Shown: positions 557 to 8,710 of the stretch, in pieces
How the letters are laid out: every line of letters starts with the position of its first letter
Numbering within the stretch: position 1 is the first letter of the stretch
DNA from: a virus
Direction: 5' to 3' (one strand)
Virus genome (UHGV): UHGV-0019869
DNA: 21,353 nt
Translations under genes and position numbers: made by a program
Notes under the pieces: generated by a model
Told to the model about the DNA's origin: nothing
The model's database searches: none
The model's input: only the letters and a program-made list of their open reading frames with translations

Positions 557-1156
557 TTATAATTTTCGCTCCCACCTAACACCCTCACGGATGAGTCTCA
601 ATGGTATTCCAGCATAAGATGATGATGGTCTTGATAGTTTTTTACCAACTAATGACTTAGTGCCAATAATACACCCATATGGTATTACAGAACCTTTGTT
701 TATTGTGACACCTTCACCAACCCACACATGGTCTGAGATAACAATATCTTTTGCGTGATTTATCCTCTCTCCACTTTCAATATCAATAATAGGATGCTCA
801 TCTGAAGTTCTAATATAAATAGAACTAGAGAACATGCAATCGTCACCAATTGTAATTGATTTACCTTCCATTGCGAAGAAATGCACACCAGCGGTGGTCG
901 TCCCGCTTCCAATAATTAACTTTGAACTGTTTTGCCGAATATCAATACAGCCTCTTATATTGGCTCTTTTTTTAATATGTAAGGTATTATTCCAACCAAT
1001 GATGTTTATTCTTAAATTTCTAAGAACTACACCTTCATCTATTGTAATTTTATGCCCGCTACCCTGCACATTAACTTTAACACTTTTGTCAATGAGTACT
1101 GATGGATGTACATTTATTTCATTACCACTTTCAAATTCACTGAATATATTTTCCAT
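557..1156 (-). CDS. Hexapeptide-repeat (left-handed beta-helix) acetyltransferase, 199 aa; candidate lysogenic-conversion enzyme
   Basis: The translation shows successive imperfect hexapeptide repeats with small or hydrophobic residues at regular spacing (IGDDCMF, IYIRTSDEHP, ISDHVWVGEGVTINKGSVIPYGCIIGTKSLV), typical of Maa/LacA/WcaF/NeuO-type acyltransferases. Sampled lines are AT-rich. It lies just beyond the tailspike on the same strand. Confidence 0.75.
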   Translation of the reverse strand: MENIFSEFESGNEINVHPSVLIDKSVKVNVQGSGHKITIDEGVVLRNLRINIIGWNNTLHIKKRANIRGCIDIRQNSSKLIIGSGTTTAGVHFFAMEGKSITIGDDCMFSSSIYIRTSDEHPIIDIESGERINHAKDIVISDHVWVGEGVTINKGSVIPYGCIIGTKSLVGKKLSRPSSSYAGIPLRLIREGVRWERKL

Positions 1157-1256: not shown

Positions 1257-3062
1257 TTATAGGTTTTCGAGTTTGTTCAATCTTTGCTCTAACCCCTCTA
1301 TCCTTGAAAATGCAACATCTATAGCCTTTGTAACAAACGGTATAACCTGTTCGTAGGCAATTGTTTTTACATCGCATCCATTGTTTACTAGATGATCTTG
1401 ATATATACCACAGTCAATTCCAAGTCGATCAAGTAATTCTTTAACTTGCTGTGCAAGATACCCGGCATGTTCTCTTTTCCTTTTTCTACTGCCATCTTTT
1501 TCATGTTGATGAATTCTAGTTTCAAAAATCGGATTGCCATTAGAATCATCACCAATTTTTACATTGTATTCTTCTATATAATCATCACGAAAATCCCACT
1601 TATAAAAATATGGGATTATTCCACGGACGAATGATACAGCAAGTTCTCCGTCTATTATTCGTTTATCTGCTTTATCACGCTCATCAGACCGAGTTTGCAC
1701 CGTACCATATACATAAACTGTCTGAGAAGAATTTCCTAACTGAATCTCATGATCTCCACCAACTCTGGCACGGCAGCCTAAAGCTACACAATTTAATTTC
1801 TCTTTTGCAGGTGTCCCATCAATCAAAAACCTACCAGCTTGATGTCCAAGATATACTAATTGGGTTCCAGTAGTCTCACTATCTCCTGACGCTGCACCAA
1901 CAAAAACATTATCACTTCCTGTTGTTAAATTAAAGCCGGAAGCCCTACCAATAAGAACTGAATCATTCATTTTTGTTGCTTTATATCCTGCTTGCATCCC
2001 ACAAAAAACAACACCATTTAATCCATTCTGTGACCATGCAGCTTGATACCCTATAGCAACAATATTATTGGGAGATTCCCCATATGAAGACAAACCAAGA
2101 GAAGCCTCACGTCCTAGTGCAACGTTTCCAGAACCATCCACATTTCTAAATAAGGCAGAGCGACCTGCAGCAAGATTATTACCGCCAGTTCCCGTCTCAG
2201 CACCAGAGAATGCTCCTATATAGGTATTACCACCACCAGTTGAGTTATTTTGCATTGCTGCTTGACCGACAGCAACGTTATCTCTTCCTGTTGTTGTTCG
2301 TGACCCAGCATCCGTACCAACTGAAACATTTCTCTCTCCTGATGTTAATAGTTTGCCAGCGTTATAACCAACCACTACATTATAACTACCGGTTTTATAG
2401 TTGGCATAAGAAGAACTTTGAGCGTAAATAAAAATATTACAACTACCTGTAGTTAACAGTGCTCCAGCCTCATGTCCAAGTAGAACATTGCGCTGTCCTG
2501 TTGTAAGGCTTGCACCGGCTCGTCTACCAATACCAGTATTTTCCGCACCAACAGCCTCATCTGACTCGTTACCTATAATTGATGATCCTGCTCCAACTCC
2601 GAAAAAAGCATTATTTTTCGCATATTCATTAGAAGAAAATGCATCAATTCCCCATACCGTATTACTTGGGTCAGCATAACCAGGAGAATTTTCACCAGAA
2701 AAATTTGTTAATTCCTGCCTTAACTGATCTGGAGCATATTTCATTACATTTGGGAAATAGTGCTGCTGAGAGCCATACGCATCAAAAATCGCCATTGAGT
2801 GATTTTTTATAGTCGCAAACTTACCGAATTGACCATTCAATACAGGTTGTCCAGCTTGACTTATTTTTATTGGTTGAGAAACCTTAATATATTTTCCATT
2901 CTCATTCTCAAAATAAACATCCACTTGATTATCTGGATTAGTCGGATCGGTATCAGGCTTCCCGATATAAATGCTTCCATTCGATACTGATTTAAATGTT
3001 CTTGACATTGTGAACAATTGATTAGGCATGGAAACTATAATGTTAGGTATAATGTCTGTCAT
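1257..3062 (-). CDS. Mosaic tailspike, 601 aa: P22 gp9-like N-terminal head-binding domain, Gly-rich repeat central domain, C-terminal intramolecular chaperone (peptidase S74-like) domain
   Basis: The N-terminal ~110 aa (MTDIIPNIIVSMPNQLFTMSRTFKSVSNGSIYIGKPDTDPTNPDNQ...HSMAIFDAYGSQ) closely resembles the P22 tailspike head-binding domain. The centre carries repeated G-x-x-A-G / TTG motifs. The C-terminus has SDERDK followed by GYLAQQV and IAYEQVIPFVTKAIDVAFSRIEGLEQRLNKLE, matching the autoproteolytic chaperone domain of endosialidase and T5 pb1-type fibres. GGAG RBS upstream of the ATG at 3062. Confidence 0.9.
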   Translation of the reverse strand: MTDIIPNIIVSMPNQLFTMSRTFKSVSNGSIYIGKPDTDPTNPDNQVDVYFENENGKYIKVSQPIKISQAGQPVLNGQFGKFATIKNHSMAIFDAYGSQQHYFPNVMKYAPDQLRQELTNFSGENSPGYADPSNTVWGIDAFSSNEYAKNNAFFGVGAGSSIIGNESDEAVGAENTGIGRRAGASLTTGQRNVLLGHEAGALLTTGSCNIFIYAQSSSYANYKTGSYNVVVGYNAGKLLTSGERNVSVGTDAGSRTTTGRDNVAVGQAAMQNNSTGGGNTYIGAFSGAETGTGGNNLAAGRSALFRNVDGSGNVALGREASLGLSSYGESPNNIVAIGYQAAWSQNGLNGVVFCGMQAGYKATKMNDSVLIGRASGFNLTTGSDNVFVGAASGDSETTGTQLVYLGHQAGRFLIDGTPAKEKLNCVALGCRARVGGDHEIQLGNSSQTVYVYGTVQTRSDERDKADKRIIDGELAVSFVRGIIPYFYKWDFRDDYIEEYNVKIGDDSNGNPIFETRIHQHEKDGSRKRKREHAGYLAQQVKELLDRLGIDCGIYQDHLVNNGCDVKTIAYEQVIPFVTKAIDVAFSRIEGLEQRLNKLENL

Positions 3063-3129
3063 TTAATTTGCTCCAGATACAAGGAATCGCCGCAGCATGG
3101 CTACGGTTGGTATTTGTTTGGTTTTTGAA

Positions 3130-3146
3130 CTACGAAAATTTCGTAG
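3130..3146. promoter_or_regulatory. Perfect 17-bp palindrome ctacgaaaatttcgtag between the ant terminator and the tailspike start, flanked by 8-bp inverted repeats (ccgcagca at 3090-3097, tgctgcgg at 3177-3184)
   Basis: Dyad symmetry read directly from the sequence. Function unknown; it could be an operator or an RNA structure upstream of the tailspike gene. Confidence 0.3.
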
Positions 3147-3198
3147 TGCTATCCATCAAGGCCATCGCCGCTTAGTTGCTGCGGTGAATTTTGGGCAT

Positions 3199-3222
3199 AA
3201 AAAAACCCAGCCTAAGCTGGGT
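3199..3222 (-). terminator. Rho-independent terminator downstream of ant (stem cccagc / gctggg, 4-nt loop, 7-nt U-run on the minus strand)
   Basis: GC stem-loop at 3206-3221 directly followed on the minus strand by the run complementary to AAAAAAA at 3199-3205, about 20 nt after the ant stop codon. Confidence 0.6.
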
Positions 3223-3240
3223 CGTTGCGTTGGTTATCTG

Positions 3241-4143
3241 TCAGTAGTTATGTACTGAAGGAGGTAATTCTTTATTCTTAAGTCTCATCCATGCGGAAAG
3301 ATTCGTTGGTCCGTCTGGCTCATTAATATCAACATCTCGTGTATGGTTGATTAAAACATCTCTCGCCATATCGATAATACGGGAGAACTCATAACCGCAG
3401 TCATGACATCTGCCGGAATAGTTCGATTGAATTTGTTTTAGCGCCGGATACAGTTCGCGGAATAATGCCTGTGAGCGGTTGGCATAATCCCATAACCATA
3501 CAAGGCTGTTTGCTTCTTTTGCAGAAAGCTCGTTGGTTTTCTTCTCTTGTTTGCCGATGAACTCACCTTCAAGCACTACCCTGTGGATGTACTCTACAGC
3601 TTGCGGTATCTGAGATGCATCAAGCTCTTCAATACTTTCCACATTGAAACGCTGATGAATCATTGCATAAGCTTCTGGGTACATTAGATGCTTTTTGCTG
3701 ACTAGCATATTTACAGCATCACGAAGCGGAGTCCTGTCATCAACAGATGTTTTCTTACGTGCATTTTCTGCCTTTCCCTTCGTCCAGTAGTCATGCAGCA
3801 CAGTAAAGCATTCTTCCTGGTACTGAATCAGTTTATCGCGGATGTCAGCACGAACTTTCTCAGGGTTGATGCTGAACAGCCATCCATTTAACTTCTTCAA
3901 AGGAAGGCAGAGTAGCTTACGAAGCTTACCATCAGCGGCAACCATGTTCATATGAACACAGTTGAATTTGCTAATCTGCTTCATGAGTTTTGTTTGCTGC
4001 GTTGACCAGCTCATTCCAAGGTTTTCAACGATTGGCTTCATCGCAACATATGCAACTCCGGCAGCCATGGCGGTGATAATTTGCTGACCATTGAAAGGCA
4101 CGTAAGAGGTGTTCACTGCTTCTAAAATTGCTATACTATTCAT
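3241..4143 (-). CDS. ant: Antirepressor Ant, 300 aa
   Basis: From [68 protein letters not shown] the translation matches my recollection of the P22 Ant N-terminus and its 300-aa length. The ORF track's 322-aa version starts at an upstream in-frame Met inside the sar/terminator region, so I chose the ATG at 4141-4143, which has a GGAG RBS. Confidence 0.88.
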
Positions 4144-4144
4144 G

Positions 4145-4216
4145 TTGGTTTTTCTCCACGGATTTACTGACAACCGAAGCCCTGACTGTTCCCGCAGTTG
4201 GGGCTTCACTGTTTTT
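4145..4216 (+). ncRNA. sar: Candidate Sar-like antisense RNA (about 70 nt) complementary to the ant RBS and start region
   Basis: A plus-strand -10-like TATACT at 4133-4138 lies inside the ant 5' end, and a plus-strand hairpin (gaagccc 4176-4182 / gggcttc 4201-4207) is followed by TTTTT at 4212-4216. Position and size match the P22 sar antisense RNA architecture. The -35 element is weak. Confidence 0.4.
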
Positions 4217-4427
4217 GTAAGTCACTGTAGTTATAAAGCCACTGACCACTCATTCTTGCTTTGATTGACTCTACTGAATCACGGCAAGGAATGATTCCAC
4301 CTGACATCATTCTGATCTCCGTAAATTCACCGCTCCTTATCGACTCAATGCCATTAACGTTAACTAAAGATTTACCTCTACCAAGTGCATTCTCATAGCC
4401 AATCTCATCAACCTCAATAAACTTCAT
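4206..4427 (-). CDS. Hypothetical 73-aa protein inserted between arc and ant
   Basis: The ATG at 4425-4427 overlaps the arc TGA stop (ATGA overlap), with a purine-rich stretch upstream. No family recognised. This ORF occupies what I recall as a short arc-ant intercistronic region in P22. Confidence 0.5.
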
Positions 4428-4582
4428 ACCGTTATCCCCTCTCTCTTCAGGCTGTCCATCACTCGCTTATAAATCTCAGAGTTAACAGATCGCCCGTTCT
4501 CTTCAGCTACCTTGCGCACCAAATCCAATACTTCTTTAGGCCACCGCAAATTGAACTGCGGCATTTTGCTCATTCCTTTCAT
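4424..4582 (-). CDS. arc: Arc repressor (ribbon-helix-helix), 52 aa
   Basis: MKGMSKMPQFNLRWPKEVLDLVRKVAEENGRSVNSEIYKRVMDSLKREG is near-identical to P22 Arc as I recall it. The true start is the internal Met of the 73-aa ORF-track entry (ATG at 4580-4582), with a GAGGT RBS. Confidence 0.9.
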   Translation of the reverse strand: MKGMSKMPQFNLRWPKEVLDLVRKVAEENGRSVNSEIYKRVMDSLKREGITV

Positions 4583-4596
4583 ATTTACCTCACAAT

Positions 4597-4617
4597 ATAG
4601 GTCCACGGTGGACCTAT
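4597..4617. promoter_or_regulatory. Mnt operator: perfect 21-bp palindrome ataggtccacggtggacctat
   Basis: Perfect dyad read from the sequence. Its core GGTCCACGGTGGACC matches the P22 Mnt operator as I recall it. It lies in the divergent arc/mnt control region, which should contain the Pant and Pmnt promoters. Confidence 0.7.
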
Positions 4618-4624
4618 TGAGAAT

Positions 4625-4645
4625 ATAGTAGAGTGCTTCTATCAT
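4625..4645. promoter_or_regulatory. Arc operator: atagtagagtgcttctatcat (imperfect dyad with TAGA half-sites)
   Basis: Matches the 21-bp P22 Arc operator as I recall it, located between the arc and mnt start codons. Confidence 0.7.
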
Positions 4646-4672
4646 GTCAATACACTAACTTGGGGTGATGGC

Positions 4673-4927
4673 ATGGCTAGAGACGATCCGCACTTTAACT
4701 TCCGTATGCCTTTGGAAGTAAGAGAAAAATTGAAATTAAGAGCAGAGGCTAACGGAAGGTCAATGAACTCTGAGTTATTACAAATCGTTCAGGATGCTCT
4801 CTCAAAGCCATCATCAATTGTAGGCTATCGAGACGAAGCTGAGCGAGTCGCGGATGAGCAATCTGACGTTGTTAAGAAGATGGTCTTTGAAACGCTGAAA
4901 AATATTTATAGCAAAAGTAAGTTATAG
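4673..4927 (+). CDS. mnt: Mnt repressor (ribbon-helix-helix), 84 aa
   Basis: MARDDPHFNFRMPLEVREKLKLRAEANGRSMNSELLQIVQDALSKPS... is near-identical to P22 Mnt as I recall it. Divergent from arc, as in immI. Confidence 0.9.
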   Translation: MARDDPHFNFRMPLEVREKLKLRAEANGRSMNSELLQIVQDALSKPSSIVGYRDEAERVADEQSDVVKKMVFETLKNIYSKSKL

Positions 4928-4976: not shown

Positions 4977-5696
4977 ATGAAAAAAAGTAATGGACTCACA
5001 TTAAAACTTGACGGAACCACCCCTGGCCAGCTGTCAATGGCTAAGTTGGTCAAGTATATGTCTGCTCTCGTAGATCTATACGGTTCTGCAGATTCTGTTC
5101 ACTTCGACTGTGTAAGTGAAGGATCGGCTGACTTAAATGCATGGGTCGATAATGATATTTGTTATAACGCTGTCATAGCAAGGGCCTCTCTCTCAGCCAA
5201 AGAGAAATCACCCGCGTATCAAAAAATTGTTAATTTACTGGAGCATGATGGTTTTTCAGCGAAACTACTCGGACGAAACCACTCAACCATTATCGCATTC
5301 CCGCGAGTAAAAAAGGAGCCAATCCCTTTACTCATAACAAAAACGTCAGAAGTTCAAGGAAGGCTATACAGTGTTGGCGGAAAAGACAACTCAATACCTG
5401 TGCGTATTGAGGGAGCCAACGGTGAAACATTCAAGTGCGAGGCAACCCCTGATTTGGCGGCAGCTCTTGGGTCCCATCTATTCAAATATATTAGGGTTAA
5501 AGGAGATGGGTGCTGGGAAAAAAAGAACAACAAATGGGAGCTAAAGAAACTAAAAATAACTTCATTTGTATTGCTCAAAAAATCATCACTCAAGGATGCT
5601 ATTAATGCTATCAAGCAAGTTCCTGGAGATCAGTGGTCCGAGGAACGCGATGTTGATTCAATCCTTAGGACTCTGAGGAAGATAAATTGCGAGTAA
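4977..5696 (+). CDS. Hypothetical 239-aa protein, first gene of the accessory cassette downstream of mnt
   Basis: Long ORF in a markedly AT-rich segment (about 30% G+C in a sampled line, against 40-63% in sampled structural-gene lines). Its 3' end overlaps the next gene's start by 10 nt. No recognisable catalytic motif. Weak RBS. Confidence 0.65.
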   Translation: MKKSNGLTLKLDGTTPGQLSMAKLVKYMSALVDLYGSADSVHFDCVSEGSADLNAWVDNDICYNAVIARASLSAKEKSPAYQKIVNLLEHDGFSAKLLGRNHSTIIAFPRVKKEPIPLLITKTSEVQGRLYSVGGKDNSIPVRIEGANGETFKCEATPDLAAALGSHLFKYIRVKGDGCWEKKNNKWELKKLKITSFVLLKKSSLKDAINAIKQVPGDQWSEERDVDSILRTLRKINCE

Positions 5697-6235
5697 TTTT
5701 AGATACCAATATTCTGGTATACCTACTATCAGATATAGAACACGATTATAGATTATCTGACCCTATACTTGGTTCTGAGATTCCAGATGCCAAAAGAAGA
5801 GCAGAAGCTCTTGTTGATCGAATAGATAACAAGAACGGGACAATCATCGTTCCAACTCCTGTATTGGCGGAGTTTTTAGTTGGAATCCATAAAGATTACC
5901 AACAAGAAAAACTGAATGTTATCAAATCGTTATCGTGCTTCGAAACTGTATCATTTGATGAGTTGGCTGCTATTGAATGCGCATCGATACCAACATTAAA
6001 AGAATTAAGGAAAATTAGCACAGAAGGTACAGCAAACAAAATTAAGTTTGACAGACAAATAATAGCAATTGCAAGAGCAATTAATGCTGACGAGGTATGG
6101 ACTCATGATAAGGGAGTGTTTGAGCGTTGCAAAAGTCTCAATATTCCTGTGTTCACATTATCATCAATAGAACCAATTCCGGTTCAAAGTCTCATGGAGT
6201 TCTTACACGATTCAGACGATCAGAGATTACACTAA
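5687..6235 (+). CDS. PIN-domain nuclease-like protein, 182 aa (TTG start)
   Basis: The N-terminal ILDTNIL motif with an invariant Asp, and downstream acidic residues (AEFLVG; FDRQIIAIARAINADEVWTHDKG), are typical of VapC/PIN folds. The TTG at 5687-5689 is preceded by GAGGAA at 5675-5680. Confidence 0.75.
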   Translation: MRVILDTNILVYLLSDIEHDYRLSDPILGSEIPDAKRRAEALVDRIDNKNGTIIVPTPVLAEFLVGIHKDYQQEKLNVIKSLSCFETVSFDELAAIECASIPTLKELRKISTEGTANKIKFDRQIIAIARAINADEVWTHDKGVFERCKSLNIPVFTLSSIEPIPVQSLMEFLHDSDDQRLH

Positions 6236-6251
6236 AATATAATTTTTATGC

Positions 6252-6279
6252 ATCCGTGATAATTACATCCGTCACGGAT
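6252..6279 (+). promoter_or_regulatory. Inverted repeat atccgtga (12-nt spacer) tcacggat between the PIN gene and the small membrane-protein gene
   Basis: 8-bp perfect inverted repeat at 6252-6259 and 6272-6279, read from the sequence. No T-run follows, so it may be an operator or attenuator rather than a terminator. Confidence 0.3.
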
Positions 6280-6362
6280 ACATAAAGCTATAGCCAAAAG
6301 TGGACAAACCTTTATCTCACTCCAAACCATCTGGTATCCTGCACAAAACTAAGGAGGTTGGT

Positions 6363-6590
6363 GTGAAGCGATGGTTCCTCATAATTACTGTTTTCGCGAT
6401 CATTTACACTATTTTCCCTGCATTAAAAGCACCAATGCAAATAATTTCGCTTGCAATAATTGCAATTGGTGCTTTCATTGCAGTAGCCGTACTTGTGTTT
6501 AAGGTTTTAAAGTTTTTAGTTTGGCTATCAAAAGATGATGGATGCAAAGTTCATCAAGAAAAAGAAGGCAAAATAACCAAAGTTGACTAA
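6363..6590 (+). CDS. Small hydrophobic (predicted two-helix membrane) protein, about 75 aa
   Basis: AGGAGG at 6352-6357 lies 5 nt before the GTG at 6363. The product WFLIITVFAIIYTIFPALKAPMQIISLAIIAIGAFIAVAVLVFKVLKFLVWL is strongly hydrophobic. The ORF track's alternative start at 6300 lacks an RBS. The stop overlaps the convergent gp16-like stop. Confidence 0.55.
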   Translation: MKRWFLIITVFAIIYTIFPALKAPMQIISLAIIAIGAFIAVAVLVFKVLKFLVWLSKDDGCKVHQEKEGKITKVD

Positions 6591-8710
6591 CTGTCACTAG
6601 CGAGCCATGTAATAATCCCCGTGCGGGCAATGGTTTTTGCTTCATCTGTTGATAAGGTTTTCTCCCATCTCTTAAATGCCCCAGATTGCATCAGTTTCCT
6701 TTCTATTACGCGTCTCACTTCTGCTCTGTCTACAGGTGCGTTTTGCAGGCGAAATAGCATTGATTTAAACTCAGGAGAAGACAGTAGAGCATCAGCAGCC
6801 TTTATCCTGCTTGTTTTCCCTGACATCAATGCTGACGTTATCACCCCTGTTGCACCTACACCAGGAAGACCAGATAAGCTTGTAATACCTTCCGCCGCAG
6901 CAGCTTTTGAGGCTATTCCATAAATTTTTGCGAGACTACCCTTTTCTTTCAGAAAGTTATTAACTTGCTGATCCACAAGACTACTAGCATACTGCTTACC
7001 AGTATTGAGTCTATTCATAGCCTTAGCTGCTTGATAAATCGTATCAAGGCGCTTTGATGCATCTGTGCCAATAGCATCACGGAGAGCCTTCATATTGGCC
7101 CCATTGCGTGACATTCCGTTATACCATTTTACAAATCCATCAACCCCTAATTGCTGACCTGGTGATTTAGCATAGCTGGTAAATGCTTTATTCATTGAGG
7201 TGAGCGCAACTTCCTGCCGCATATCCTTTGGAATTGACTTCATTAATTGCCTAAAGTCACCACCGTTTCCTTTTGCCATATTAACAACGGCACTTTCAAC
7301 TTTTGGAATTGCTGATTGCTGAAGTTTTCTACCCAAAACGGTTACGGCATCATCTTCAATGGATTTTCGTGTTTTTACCAACTCCTTACCAAGCGTCCAT
7401 AACTCCCCTGCGCCATATTTTTCTGCGACAGCCTGTTGGTCATCTGTTATAGCCGCATATAACTTTTTAAGAACACCTGTTTCTTCATCCTTGAATGGGC
7501 CAGAGCCTTTGCCAATAGCTTGCCCAACCTGCTTTCTAGCGAGATCTAAACGCCCATACGTTGGCAAGGTGTTTGGATCAAGTCGGTTCAATGTCCGCTT
7601 CATTATTGGAGATAATTCATCAATTCCACCTATATCATCAGCAAAATCCTCTAAAAAATTCAATGTATTAGTTGCCTCAATCCGGTCTCTTACAGGAACC
7701 TTTTCGGCAATTTTGTTGTAGATGTTATCTGACTGATTTTGTAATGATGAAATGGTTTTATCAAAATTATCTGCAAGCCTGTCAGAAACCAGTTGCTTAT
7801 CAAGGCTTCCCCCAAATGAAGTTATCATTTCATCAGCTTTTCTTCCTAATTCAGTAATAAAACGCTTATGCGCCTCACTAATCTCTGTTCCAGGGAGACT
7901 TGCCACTGCATTATCAAGAGCCCTGACAGCAGGATTATTAGAGATCATGCCTGGAGTGGCATAATTTTCCAGTTCTAGCTCACGAATAGCATTTATCGCG
8001 TTAAAATCAGGATTAACTTCATCGGCGAAATCTTGAATAGCTCGTTGCCCGCCGATAAATTTATTGTCCATTGCGCCAGCAGCTTTCTTTAACGTTGCTT
8101 TAGATGATTTACTACCCATCCCTACGGATGAGCGATAAATATCTCCGGCACTATTTTTAATTTTTCCTGCAATCTTCCCAAGAGCTGGACCAACAATCTC
8201 TGCTACAGGGCCAGCCACAGCGCCAATAGCAGCTCCAGAAGCAACATCGCTATTTGTTCCATTGGCTACAATAGCCCCTTCTCCAGCACCAAGCCCTGCG
8301 GCGGCAGCCAGCCTTGCCGCCCCTTTCGGAACCTGAGAAATAATCCCACCACCACTAACAAATGGTGCTGCTTGTCCAACGAACTCACCAACATCTTGTA
8401 CGGTTGATGGTTTTGCCGCTAACTTCTGCTGTAGAGACTGAATTGCGGCTTGCTCTTCTGGTGTCATATCCTGAAATAGACCAACACCTTTACCAACATC
8501 CATCAATCCACTGAGAACGCCATACATAAAACGGTCGAAACCGTTAGCATTATTAACAACATTTTCCTGTCTGGAATTTTCCTCTGGTGAAACCAAAGGA
8601 GATTGCTGCTGTTCTGGTTGGGCATCAAGCACAAAGCCATCAGGAAGCTGTGAGTTATCAGGCTGTTCATCCAGAACAAATCCCTCTGGTAAACCTACAT
8701 TGGTTGCCAT
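6587..8710 (-). CDS. Ejection (DNA transfer) protein, P22 gp16-like, 707 aa
   Basis: Last gene of the late operon, in the gp7-gp20-gp16 order. Gly/Ala-rich central region; N-terminal duplicated LP(E/D)GFVLD(E/A)QP motif. Confidence 0.8.

Follow-up and report, generated by a model that had tools for sequence, protein, structure and literature searches.

What does a P22-like prophage carry between its maintenance repressor and the last of its ejection genes? The 21,353-nt stretch of virus genome UHGV-0019869 analyzed here in full (the window, to whose numbering all positions refer) covers the late and immI regions of such a prophage, and it places three plus-strand open reading frames (ORFs) between mnt (4673–4927) and a gp16-like gene (6587–8710). 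An initial annotation, made from the sequence alone, had taken these for a single three-gene cassette, a candidate defense or exclusion system, much more AT-rich than its surroundings and standing where P22 carries sieA. The three ORFs themselves are real, since an E. coli locus that is 100% identical bears precisely these gene calls in RefSeq, and the flanks are as the annotation had them, with ant, arc and mnt to the left and a 707-aa gp16-like protein to the right. The unity of the cassette, on the other hand, is lost upon comparison with other genomes. Genes 1 and 2, encoding a 239-aa protein and a PIN-domain nuclease, form a mobile two-gene module, and gene 3, encoding a 75-aa membrane protein, is swapped independently of them. 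The reading of the pair that we favor, and about which we find ourselves evenly divided, is that of a lysogen-expressed, toxin–antitoxin-like abortive-infection module, with the PIN protein as the effector and the OB-fold protein encoded by gene 1 as both its neutralizer and its sensor.

That genes 1 and 2 belong together is evident in the first place from their arrangement. The TTG start of gene 2 (5687–6235, plus strand, 182 aa) overlaps the stop of gene 1 (4977–5696, plus strand) by 10 nt and is preceded by an AGGAAG Shine-Dalgarno sequence. The same order recurs among relatives: a scan of GTDB species gave 23 genuine loci, and in each of them, as in 44 of 44 IMG/VR viral contigs (one of which was flagged as non-adjacent solely from an overlapping longest-ORF start, and is counted as adjacent here), a PIN gene of the same family comes immediately after the gene 1 homolog and in the same orientation, which makes for adjacency in all 67 of the loci surveyed. 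Distant relatives in Marinobacterium, a Binatia metagenome-assembled genome and an uncultured lineage show this adjacency as well. Within 5,426 complete E. coli genomes, on which all E. coli counts given here are based, genes 1 and 2 are found in 33, always together and at least 99.3% identical. The two proteins also diverge in step with one another, at about equal rates; across 26 loci (325 locus pairs) their pairwise identities correlate with r = 0.94, a value reached by none of 2,000 Mantel permutations. Decayed copies in genome loci are few and of a consistent sort: the PIN gene is broken and gene 1 intact in two, both genes are broken in one, and in none is gene 1 broken beside an intact PIN gene. 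Such a pattern fits a toxin together with its neutralizer.

The second member of the pair is the more readily assigned. Consistent with the initial annotation, gene 2 encodes a PIN nuclease, matching PF01850 with E = 4.1e-10 and 40.8 bits against a cut-off of 23.6, and the same model is matched by all 33 family members scanned. Across 33 sequences at 29–75% identity, residues D6, E62, D122 and D141 do not vary, and the protein is thus predicted to be a catalytically intact nuclease of the VapC type (PF01850). Close relatives bear the NCBI name “type II toxin-antitoxin system VapC family toxin”; measured against the NCBIfam VapC models themselves, the protein lies far below the cut-offs (27.1 bits vs. 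140, 19.9 vs. 73.6 and 14.8 vs. 80). A sequence search of solved structures with the PIN protein and its family profile returned no usable relative.

Gene 1, in which no motif had been recognized, indeed has no Pfam, NCBIfam or PADLOC match in profile searches, and none of 30 diverse family members contains a Pfam domain. The family is neither rare nor confined to P22-like phages. A word search gave 58 clusters of homologs and a full hidden Markov model scan 1,589 representatives at E ≤ 1e-3 (clusters at 50% identity), the members all being about 240–250 aa in length and their genes typically lying right after lambdoid CI-type repressors. Structure prediction and fold search, which the initial annotation had proposed as a check, give a protein with a predicted ferredoxin-like domain (residues ~1–107), a predicted SSB-like OB fold (~118–199) and a C-terminal helical tail of low confidence. 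The AlphaFold2 model has a mean predicted local distance difference test score (pLDDT) of 85.9 and a predicted template-modeling score (pTM) of 0.53, the latter as expected for two domains of loose relative orientation. Modeled separately, the N-terminal domain reaches a pLDDT of 86 and a pTM of 0.79 and resembles a generic ferredoxin-like or RRM-like fold (Z ≤ 6.7). The modeled OB fold is of the SSB, PriB, RPA and MCM class, at 10–16% identity and hence at the level of fold only; a BFVD search brought up phage SSBs along with a single DUF6575 protein. Conservation along the protein is highest at QGRLYSVGGKD..PVRIEG, in the first OB strands and loop. The last 35 residues are modeled with low confidence, yet W220 and R234 within them are conserved in at least 90% of family sequences, a pattern that usually marks a segment taking up its fold upon binding a partner. 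Searching solved structures by sequence with gene 1 and its family profile yielded nothing usable, and neither profile nor fold searches found a DNA-binding or autoregulatory domain. Gene 1 appears to encode a real, structured protein, an obligate PIN partner of a previously undescribed kind, and the pair would unite a PIN effector with a new class of partner.

What, then, might such a protein do to its PIN partner? In the mechanism that we favor, the prophage would express genes 1 and 2 in the lysogen, most likely within the mnt transcript from Pmnt. The gene 1 protein would bind the PIN protein and hold it inactive, probably through the C-terminal tail bearing W220 and R234, in a manner resembling the VapB and FitA tails that plug the PIN active site. 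Upon infection, the OB fold would engage a newly appearing nucleic acid or phage protein, and the PIN nuclease so freed would cut RNA, thereby aborting the infection, as befits an abortive-infection or exclusion system. In the FitAB and VapBC structures, it is an antitoxin arginine inserted into the acidic pocket of the PIN domain that neutralizes the toxin, and by analogy the conserved Arg of the gene 1 tail could plug the active site of its own partner. The sequences show the gene pair, its conservation, the intact active site, the folds and the position behind repressors; from these we infer the physical interaction and the neutralization, and likewise what triggers the module, that its target is RNA and that it acts against phage. 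What speaks for the reading as a whole is the strict adjacency of the two genes, their co-divergence, the invariant acidic residues of the PIN protein and the pattern of decay, together with a repressor-linked position, a defense-type niche (satellites, Mrr, Fic or DUF3037 neighbors), survival in a degraded prophage and a DefensePredictor score, all of which are taken up below.

Some of the same features could be read in the opposite sense, with the OB-fold protein required for targeting or activation rather than for restraint. It would then bind the single-stranded nucleic acid of the invader and recruit the PIN protein, which on its own would be inert. The OB fold is of a nucleic-acid-binding class, its first strands and loop hold the most conserved stretch of the protein, and the equal evolutionary rates and strict co-divergence of the two proteins would suit subunits of one enzyme. 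There is, moreover, a precedent in DS-5, a two-gene E. coli system comprising a PIN effector and an uncharacterized partner, in which PIN catalysis is needed for defense and deletion of the partner abolishes defense without unleashing toxicity, and which is reported not to be a toxin–antitoxin system (PMC13092281). DS-5 establishes that PIN-plus-partner pairs can be genuine defense systems. That the PIN gene is the first to be lost in decaying copies, however, hints that it is the costly component, and the conserved, low-confidence C-terminal tail looks in the model like a binding or neutralizing segment. We consider a two-subunit nuclease of this kind unlikely.

The neutralizer reading that we favor supposes expression in the lysogen, and the sequence around mnt bears upon this point. 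The divergent promoters Pmnt (4617–4645, plus strand) and Pant (4650–4622, minus strand) score 10/12 and 11/12 in a promoter scan and, with the Mnt and Arc operators (4617–4650), lie in a region nearly identical to that for which Pmnt, Pant, Omnt and Oarc are annotated in P22. The first gene of the proposed operon, mnt, encodes the 84-aa immI maintenance repressor (Pfam Arc, E = 6e-27; Repressor_Mnt, E = 5e-13), its DNA being ~87% identical to P22 mnt. The defining arrangement of P22 immI, ant–arc facing mnt across divergent Pant and Pmnt with their operators, is accordingly present in the window, with domain matches to Arc, Repressor_Mnt and P22_AR. As the initial annotation noted, the accessory genes are co-oriented with mnt, and a signal scan of the window detected no promoter- or terminator-like site on the plus strand between Pmnt and gene 1. 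The simplest reading is therefore that genes 1 and 2 are co-transcribed with mnt in the lysogen, Pmnt being the likely promoter of an mnt-gene 1-gene 2 transcript. Such a unit would probably end at a hairpin (6244–6287, plus strand) that lies 3' of the PIN stop codon and folds as RNA with −17.1 kcal/mol (z = −5.1 against shuffled sequences), at the position matching that of t_mnt after orf59a in P22.

A position behind the repressor is no peculiarity of this prophage. Among 38 viral contigs with enough upstream sequence, a lysogeny repressor lies within 700 bp upstream of the pair and on the same strand in 30, namely 16 CI repressors of the S24 type, four CI repressors consisting of a helix-turn-helix (HTH) domain only and 10 Mnt repressors, these last all from near-identical E. 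coli P22-like prophages. Individual examples come from prophages of Pseudomonas, Providencia, Leclercia, Pantoea and Halomonas. One prophage region of Pantoea latae (NZ_MWUE01000022.1) contains two diverged copies of the pair, ~12 kb apart, the one after tail gene J and the other after an S24 CI gene, 70% and 57% identical to gene 1 of the window. A function internal to the phage could be imagined on these grounds, for example RNA processing or a switch on the repressor transcript, whereby the PIN protein would become active once repressor transcription stops at induction and would aid lytic commitment or host shut-off. A place in the repressor operon of many prophages would indeed couple expression to lysogeny and its loss to induction, and PIN nucleases do act in RNA maturation, too. 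The pair is also found, however, outside prophages altogether, on chromosomal islands, in satellites and in a cell-division operon, and only 33 of the ~280 E. coli genomes that match the region carry it. Its presence in so small a minority of P22-like prophages marks it as dispensable cargo, and we regard a phage-internal role as quite improbable.

The sites other than those behind repressors bear both on a defense-type niche and on the matter of addiction. The pair occurs in P4-like satellites beside primase genes, and elsewhere adjoining Fic and insertion sequence (IS) elements, Mrr, DUF3037 or IS1595. In Marinobacter excellens, a DUF3037 gene (3021–3905 of that locus, E = 3e-25) stands on the opposite strand upstream of the pair, DUF3037 being a domain newly tied to defense by DefensePredictor through DS-6 (PMC13092281). 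In an uncultured lineage, and on several independent contigs, ftsI and murE of the dcw cell-division cluster flank the pair on its own strand (3251–4528 of the locus), the pair having a GC content of 52.7% as against 59.1% for the flanks. In E. coli LC-1302-2020 (NZ_CP091756.1:3060107-3074207), a prophage remnant cut by IS2 and IS3 and left with a truncated gp16 still contains intact copies of tailspike, ant, arc, mnt, gene 1, the PIN gene and gene 3, all matching the window at 100% identity.

Might the pair, then, be a plain addiction module, a VapBC-like type II toxin–antitoxin system with an oversized antitoxin, which stabilizes the carrier prophage or island by killing cells that lose it and takes no part in phage defense? 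The bicistronic, overlapping layout with the partner first and the PIN protein second is what one would expect of such a module, as are the VapC family names given by NCBI to close relatives, the scatter over mobile DNA, beside IS elements and even within the dcw operon at lower GC than its flanks, the persistence in an IS-degraded remnant, and the decay of the PIN gene alone. Set against these points, the 239-aa partner has no DNA-binding or autoregulatory domain; in prophages the pair shows no detectable promoter of its own and appears to ride on the repressor transcript; its strong bias toward the slot behind repressors (30 of 38) is that of known exclusion genes, rexAB among them, and not what random insertion would give; and DefensePredictor scores the PIN protein as defense-like. 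A module serving addiction and nothing else seems to us rather unlikely. The two readings are not exclusive, as many toxin–antitoxin systems also defend against phage.

Several observations nevertheless weigh against the abortive-infection module that we favor. Type II antitoxins typically have DNA-binding domains, which gene 1 lacks, and the rate at which it evolves, that of its PIN partner, is unusual for an antitoxin. With a match at 10–16% identity, the OB fold permits no ligand to be inferred. The partner in DS-5 is required for defense and is no antitoxin, and a co-factor role is equally possible for gene 1. The case for co-transcription with mnt, for its part, is built only on the absence of detectable signals, and the hairpin at 6244–6287 has no U-tract, such that its function as a terminator is uncertain. 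Placement within dcw looks more like that of a selfish addiction module or a gene with a housekeeping role. Finally, the pair is absent from the systems cloned in the DefensePredictor study (Table S6, PMC13092281).

A bolder version of the sensing step deserves mention as a tentative possibility. Gene 1 might represent a new class of infection sensor, in which the PIN nuclease is licensed once the SSB-like OB fold detects single-stranded DNA of the phage, an intermediate of replication or recombination, or an SSB or recombinase that the phage encodes; the pair would then be a widespread analog of RexAB, housed in the repressor operons of unrelated prophages of Enterobacterales, Pseudomonas, Halomonas and Marinobacter. 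By now there are many candidates of such a kind, and the function of this one is a matter of inference. If the pair does defend against phages, a large unnamed family (~1,600 clusters at 50% identity, with no Pfam model) would join prophage-borne immunity, and with it a new partner architecture for PIN effectors, consisting of a ferredoxin-like domain, an OB fold and a C-terminal tail. If it is merely an addiction module, it would still bring a new antitoxin class, albeit one of narrower interest. The position behind repressors of many immunity types in any event affords a clean test of how prophages wire defense to lysogeny, and suggests a practical rule, namely to look for new systems in whatever gene or genes come directly after the repressor.

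What of the third gene, which the initial annotation had counted as part of the same system? In the P22 gene order, mnt is followed by orf59a, t_mnt, PsieA, sieA and gene 16, and a 34-nt leader, TGGTATCCTGCACAAAACTAAGGAGGTTGGTGTG, lies between PsieA and the sieA start and extends through the start codon. This leader, with its Shine-Dalgarno sequence and GTG start, is found in the window at 6332–6365 (plus strand), and it is invariant in P22, the window, E. coli KE40, PEC011 and phage EC.P3, the sequence flanking it on either side being different. The listed ORF at 6300–6590 accordingly contains the true start of gene 3 at GTG 6363, behind AAGGAGG. Given an invariant leader between differing flanks, gene 3 (6363–6590, plus strand; phrog_7294, function unknown) occupies the sieA slot proper, while genes 1 and 2 replace orf59a within the mnt unit. 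The proposed sieA-equivalent position thus holds for gene 3 behind its 34-nt leader and not for the pair, which sits in the orf59a slot. The map of P22 immI is refined to two exchange slots, the one inside the mnt unit and the other behind the conserved leader, which by its sequence looks to be the junction behind which small membrane genes get swapped.

The distribution of gene 3 follows this division. It is present in 34 of the E. coli genomes, and all three genes occur together in only six. Genes 1 and 2 are wanting in 28 of these 34, for example in strains 55989 and EC19, as they are in phage EC.P3; conversely, gene 3 is missing or replaced in 27 of the 33 genomes that carry the pair, and in PEC011 and KE40 genes 1 and 2 are present with gene 3 absent or another third gene in its stead. 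In none of the loci examined outside P22-like prophages does gene 3 stand beside the pair. A three-gene system embracing the 75-aa membrane protein could appeal to the shared strand and adjacency in the window and to those six genomes. Against it stand the separate distributions just described, the conserved sieA leader that gene 3 has to itself, and the stable hairpin between it and the PIN gene; we find such a system hardly credible.

Gene 3 is tied instead to the ejection gene on its other side. It always adjoins a 99%-identical allele of the 707-aa gp16 protein, as in EC.P3, 55989 and EC19, in which the interval from mnt to gene 3 carries quite different cargo, and where a prophage has another gp16 allele, the small membrane protein encoded behind the leader is another as well. 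KE40, whose gp16 is only 21% identical, has behind the sieA leader a gene for a protein of 109 aa that contains a coiled coil and a single transmembrane segment, and PEC011 has an unannotated ORF for a 62-aa membrane protein. A small membrane gene that co-varies with the gp16 allele may point to allele-matched exclusion proteins, or simply to a single recombination module. As had been claimed, the product of gene 3 is hydrophobic, with two hydrophobic segments by hydropathy, predicted to be transmembrane; it is a small inner-membrane protein exchanged on its own, linked to the gp16 allele and outside the PIN module. Like P22 SieA, it is a small inner-membrane protein encoded beside gene 16, in the same slot, behind the same 34-nt leader and from a GTG start. 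It differs in being 75 aa long rather than 164 aa or more, and in having two segments and no FxRYPxEAxxFNK motif, whereas SieA types A–C have this motif and 3–4 transmembrane segments. As there is no sequence similarity between the two either, we reject gene 3 as a SieA homolog.

The survey of P22-like prophages suggested by the initial annotation bears out its view of the mnt–gp16 interval as a variable accessory slot of the immI region, KE40, PEC011, EC.P3, 55989 and EC19 each holding swapped cargo there. In phage EC.P3, the interval from mnt to gene 3 (2201–3661 of that locus) contains a gene for a ClpP-like protease and, on the opposite strand, one for a SocA/Panacea-domain antitoxin (E = 2e-24) beside one for a 140-aa unknown protein. 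These last two look like a toxin–antitoxin pair of the PanAT type, and by their presence the slot evidently collects cargo of the toxin–antitoxin or defense type. As to base composition, the statement that the cassette is much more AT-rich than its surroundings is correct for gene 2 (36.6% GC) and gene 3 (34.6%) and fails for gene 1, which at 42.2% is level with neighboring mnt (40.4%), the gp16-like gene (43.6%) and ant (43.8%), in a window of 45.9% overall.

The remainder of the window is that of a P22-like phage. On the minus strand, the left part holds ant, a 73-aa ORF and arc, in addition to the tailspike gene. To the right, likewise on the minus strand, the gp16-like DNA-transfer (ejection) protein of 707 aa (6587–8710; phrog_6704, phrog_770), whose relatives RefSeq names “DNA transfer protein”, bounds the accessory region and is joined by gp20- and gp7-like ejection proteins and by needle, head-completion, coat, portal and terminase genes. 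The 73-aa ORF (4206–4427; phrog_11805, function unknown) is set between arc and ant with a 4-nt overlap on each side, at a position where P22 has no gene, only the sar antisense RNA region. The tailspike (1257–3062) conserves a P22-type head-binding N-terminus, and the very AT-rich composition of its body (GC 38.6%, and 22% at third codon positions) suggests a recently exchanged receptor-binding module. Downstream of it, a very AT-rich ORF of 199 aa (557–1156, minus strand) matches phrog_30105 and shows weak signals, short of the Pfam cut-offs, for a left-handed beta-helix (E = 1e-4) and for hexapeptide repeats (E = 8e-4); it could be a lysogenic-conversion gene of the acetyltransferase type.

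How does the pair stand in relation to systems already described? The initial annotation recognized no named system in it, and in agreement with this, PADLOC-DB v2.0 returns no match at E < 0.05 for any of the three window proteins, none for 30 relatives of gene 1 and only weak PIN cross-matches for relatives of the PIN protein. Brenes and Laub in 2025 reportedly described prophage-encoded defense systems of E. coli, one with a PIN protein among them. Our reading of the literature found no description of a prophage system combining PIN and OB-fold proteins, although Brenes and Laub 2025 may contain an earlier validation. A defense role is plausible and has been independently predicted by machine learning: Table S10 of the DefensePredictor study (PMC13092281, Science 2026) lists this very PIN protein, WP_001263856.1, as a “putative novel defense gene” with a mean log-odds of 6.81, placing it among “uncharacterized clusters” and giving it no defense homolog by HHblits or Foldseek.

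One likeness is to VapBC systems, such as VapBC of Shigella and Salmonella and FitAB of Neisseria, which share with the pair the overlapping genes, the PIN protein in second place, its four acidic residues and PF01850 match, and a mobile, patchy distribution. The differences lie in the partner, which in VapBC is ~70–90 aa in length and contains an AbrB, ribbon-helix-helix, PHD or HTH domain, as opposed to the 239 aa of gene 1 with its modeled ferredoxin-like and OB folds and none of these domains. VapBC is expressed from an autoregulated promoter, whereas the pair in prophages would be carried on the repressor transcript. Lacking a DNA-binding domain, gene 1 is rejected as a classical VapB antitoxin.

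Other PIN-based systems, compared here by their published descriptions, differ in partner type and size, and we reject identity of the pair with DS-5, DS-3 or HEC-03 on both counts. The DS-5 partner, at 166 aa, shows similarity to DUF5830 and to AcrIF4, whereas the 239-aa gene 1 protein has no DUF5830 match at E ≤ 0.1; and since the coding span of DS-5 is 1,648 bp as compared with 1,259 bp for the pair, the DS-5 PIN protein must be much the longer. DS-3 is a PIN-effector system of a single protein (PMC13092281). HEC-03, a validated anti-phage system, combines a VapC-like PIN effector with a non-VapB partner (Payne et al. 2024 preprint, 10.1101/2024.01.29.577857); this partner is an ABC ATPase, and gene 1 has no ATPase domain.

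In genomic placement, the pair parallels RexAB of phage lambda and other exclusion genes of the repressor operon. There is no relation of sequence or fold between the pair and RexAB: RexB forms an ion channel that RexA activates, and the predicted effector of the pair is a soluble nuclease. Yet in both cases a two-gene cargo lies directly downstream of the lysogeny repressor and on the same strand, where it is expressed, or in the case of the pair would be expressed, in the lysogen.

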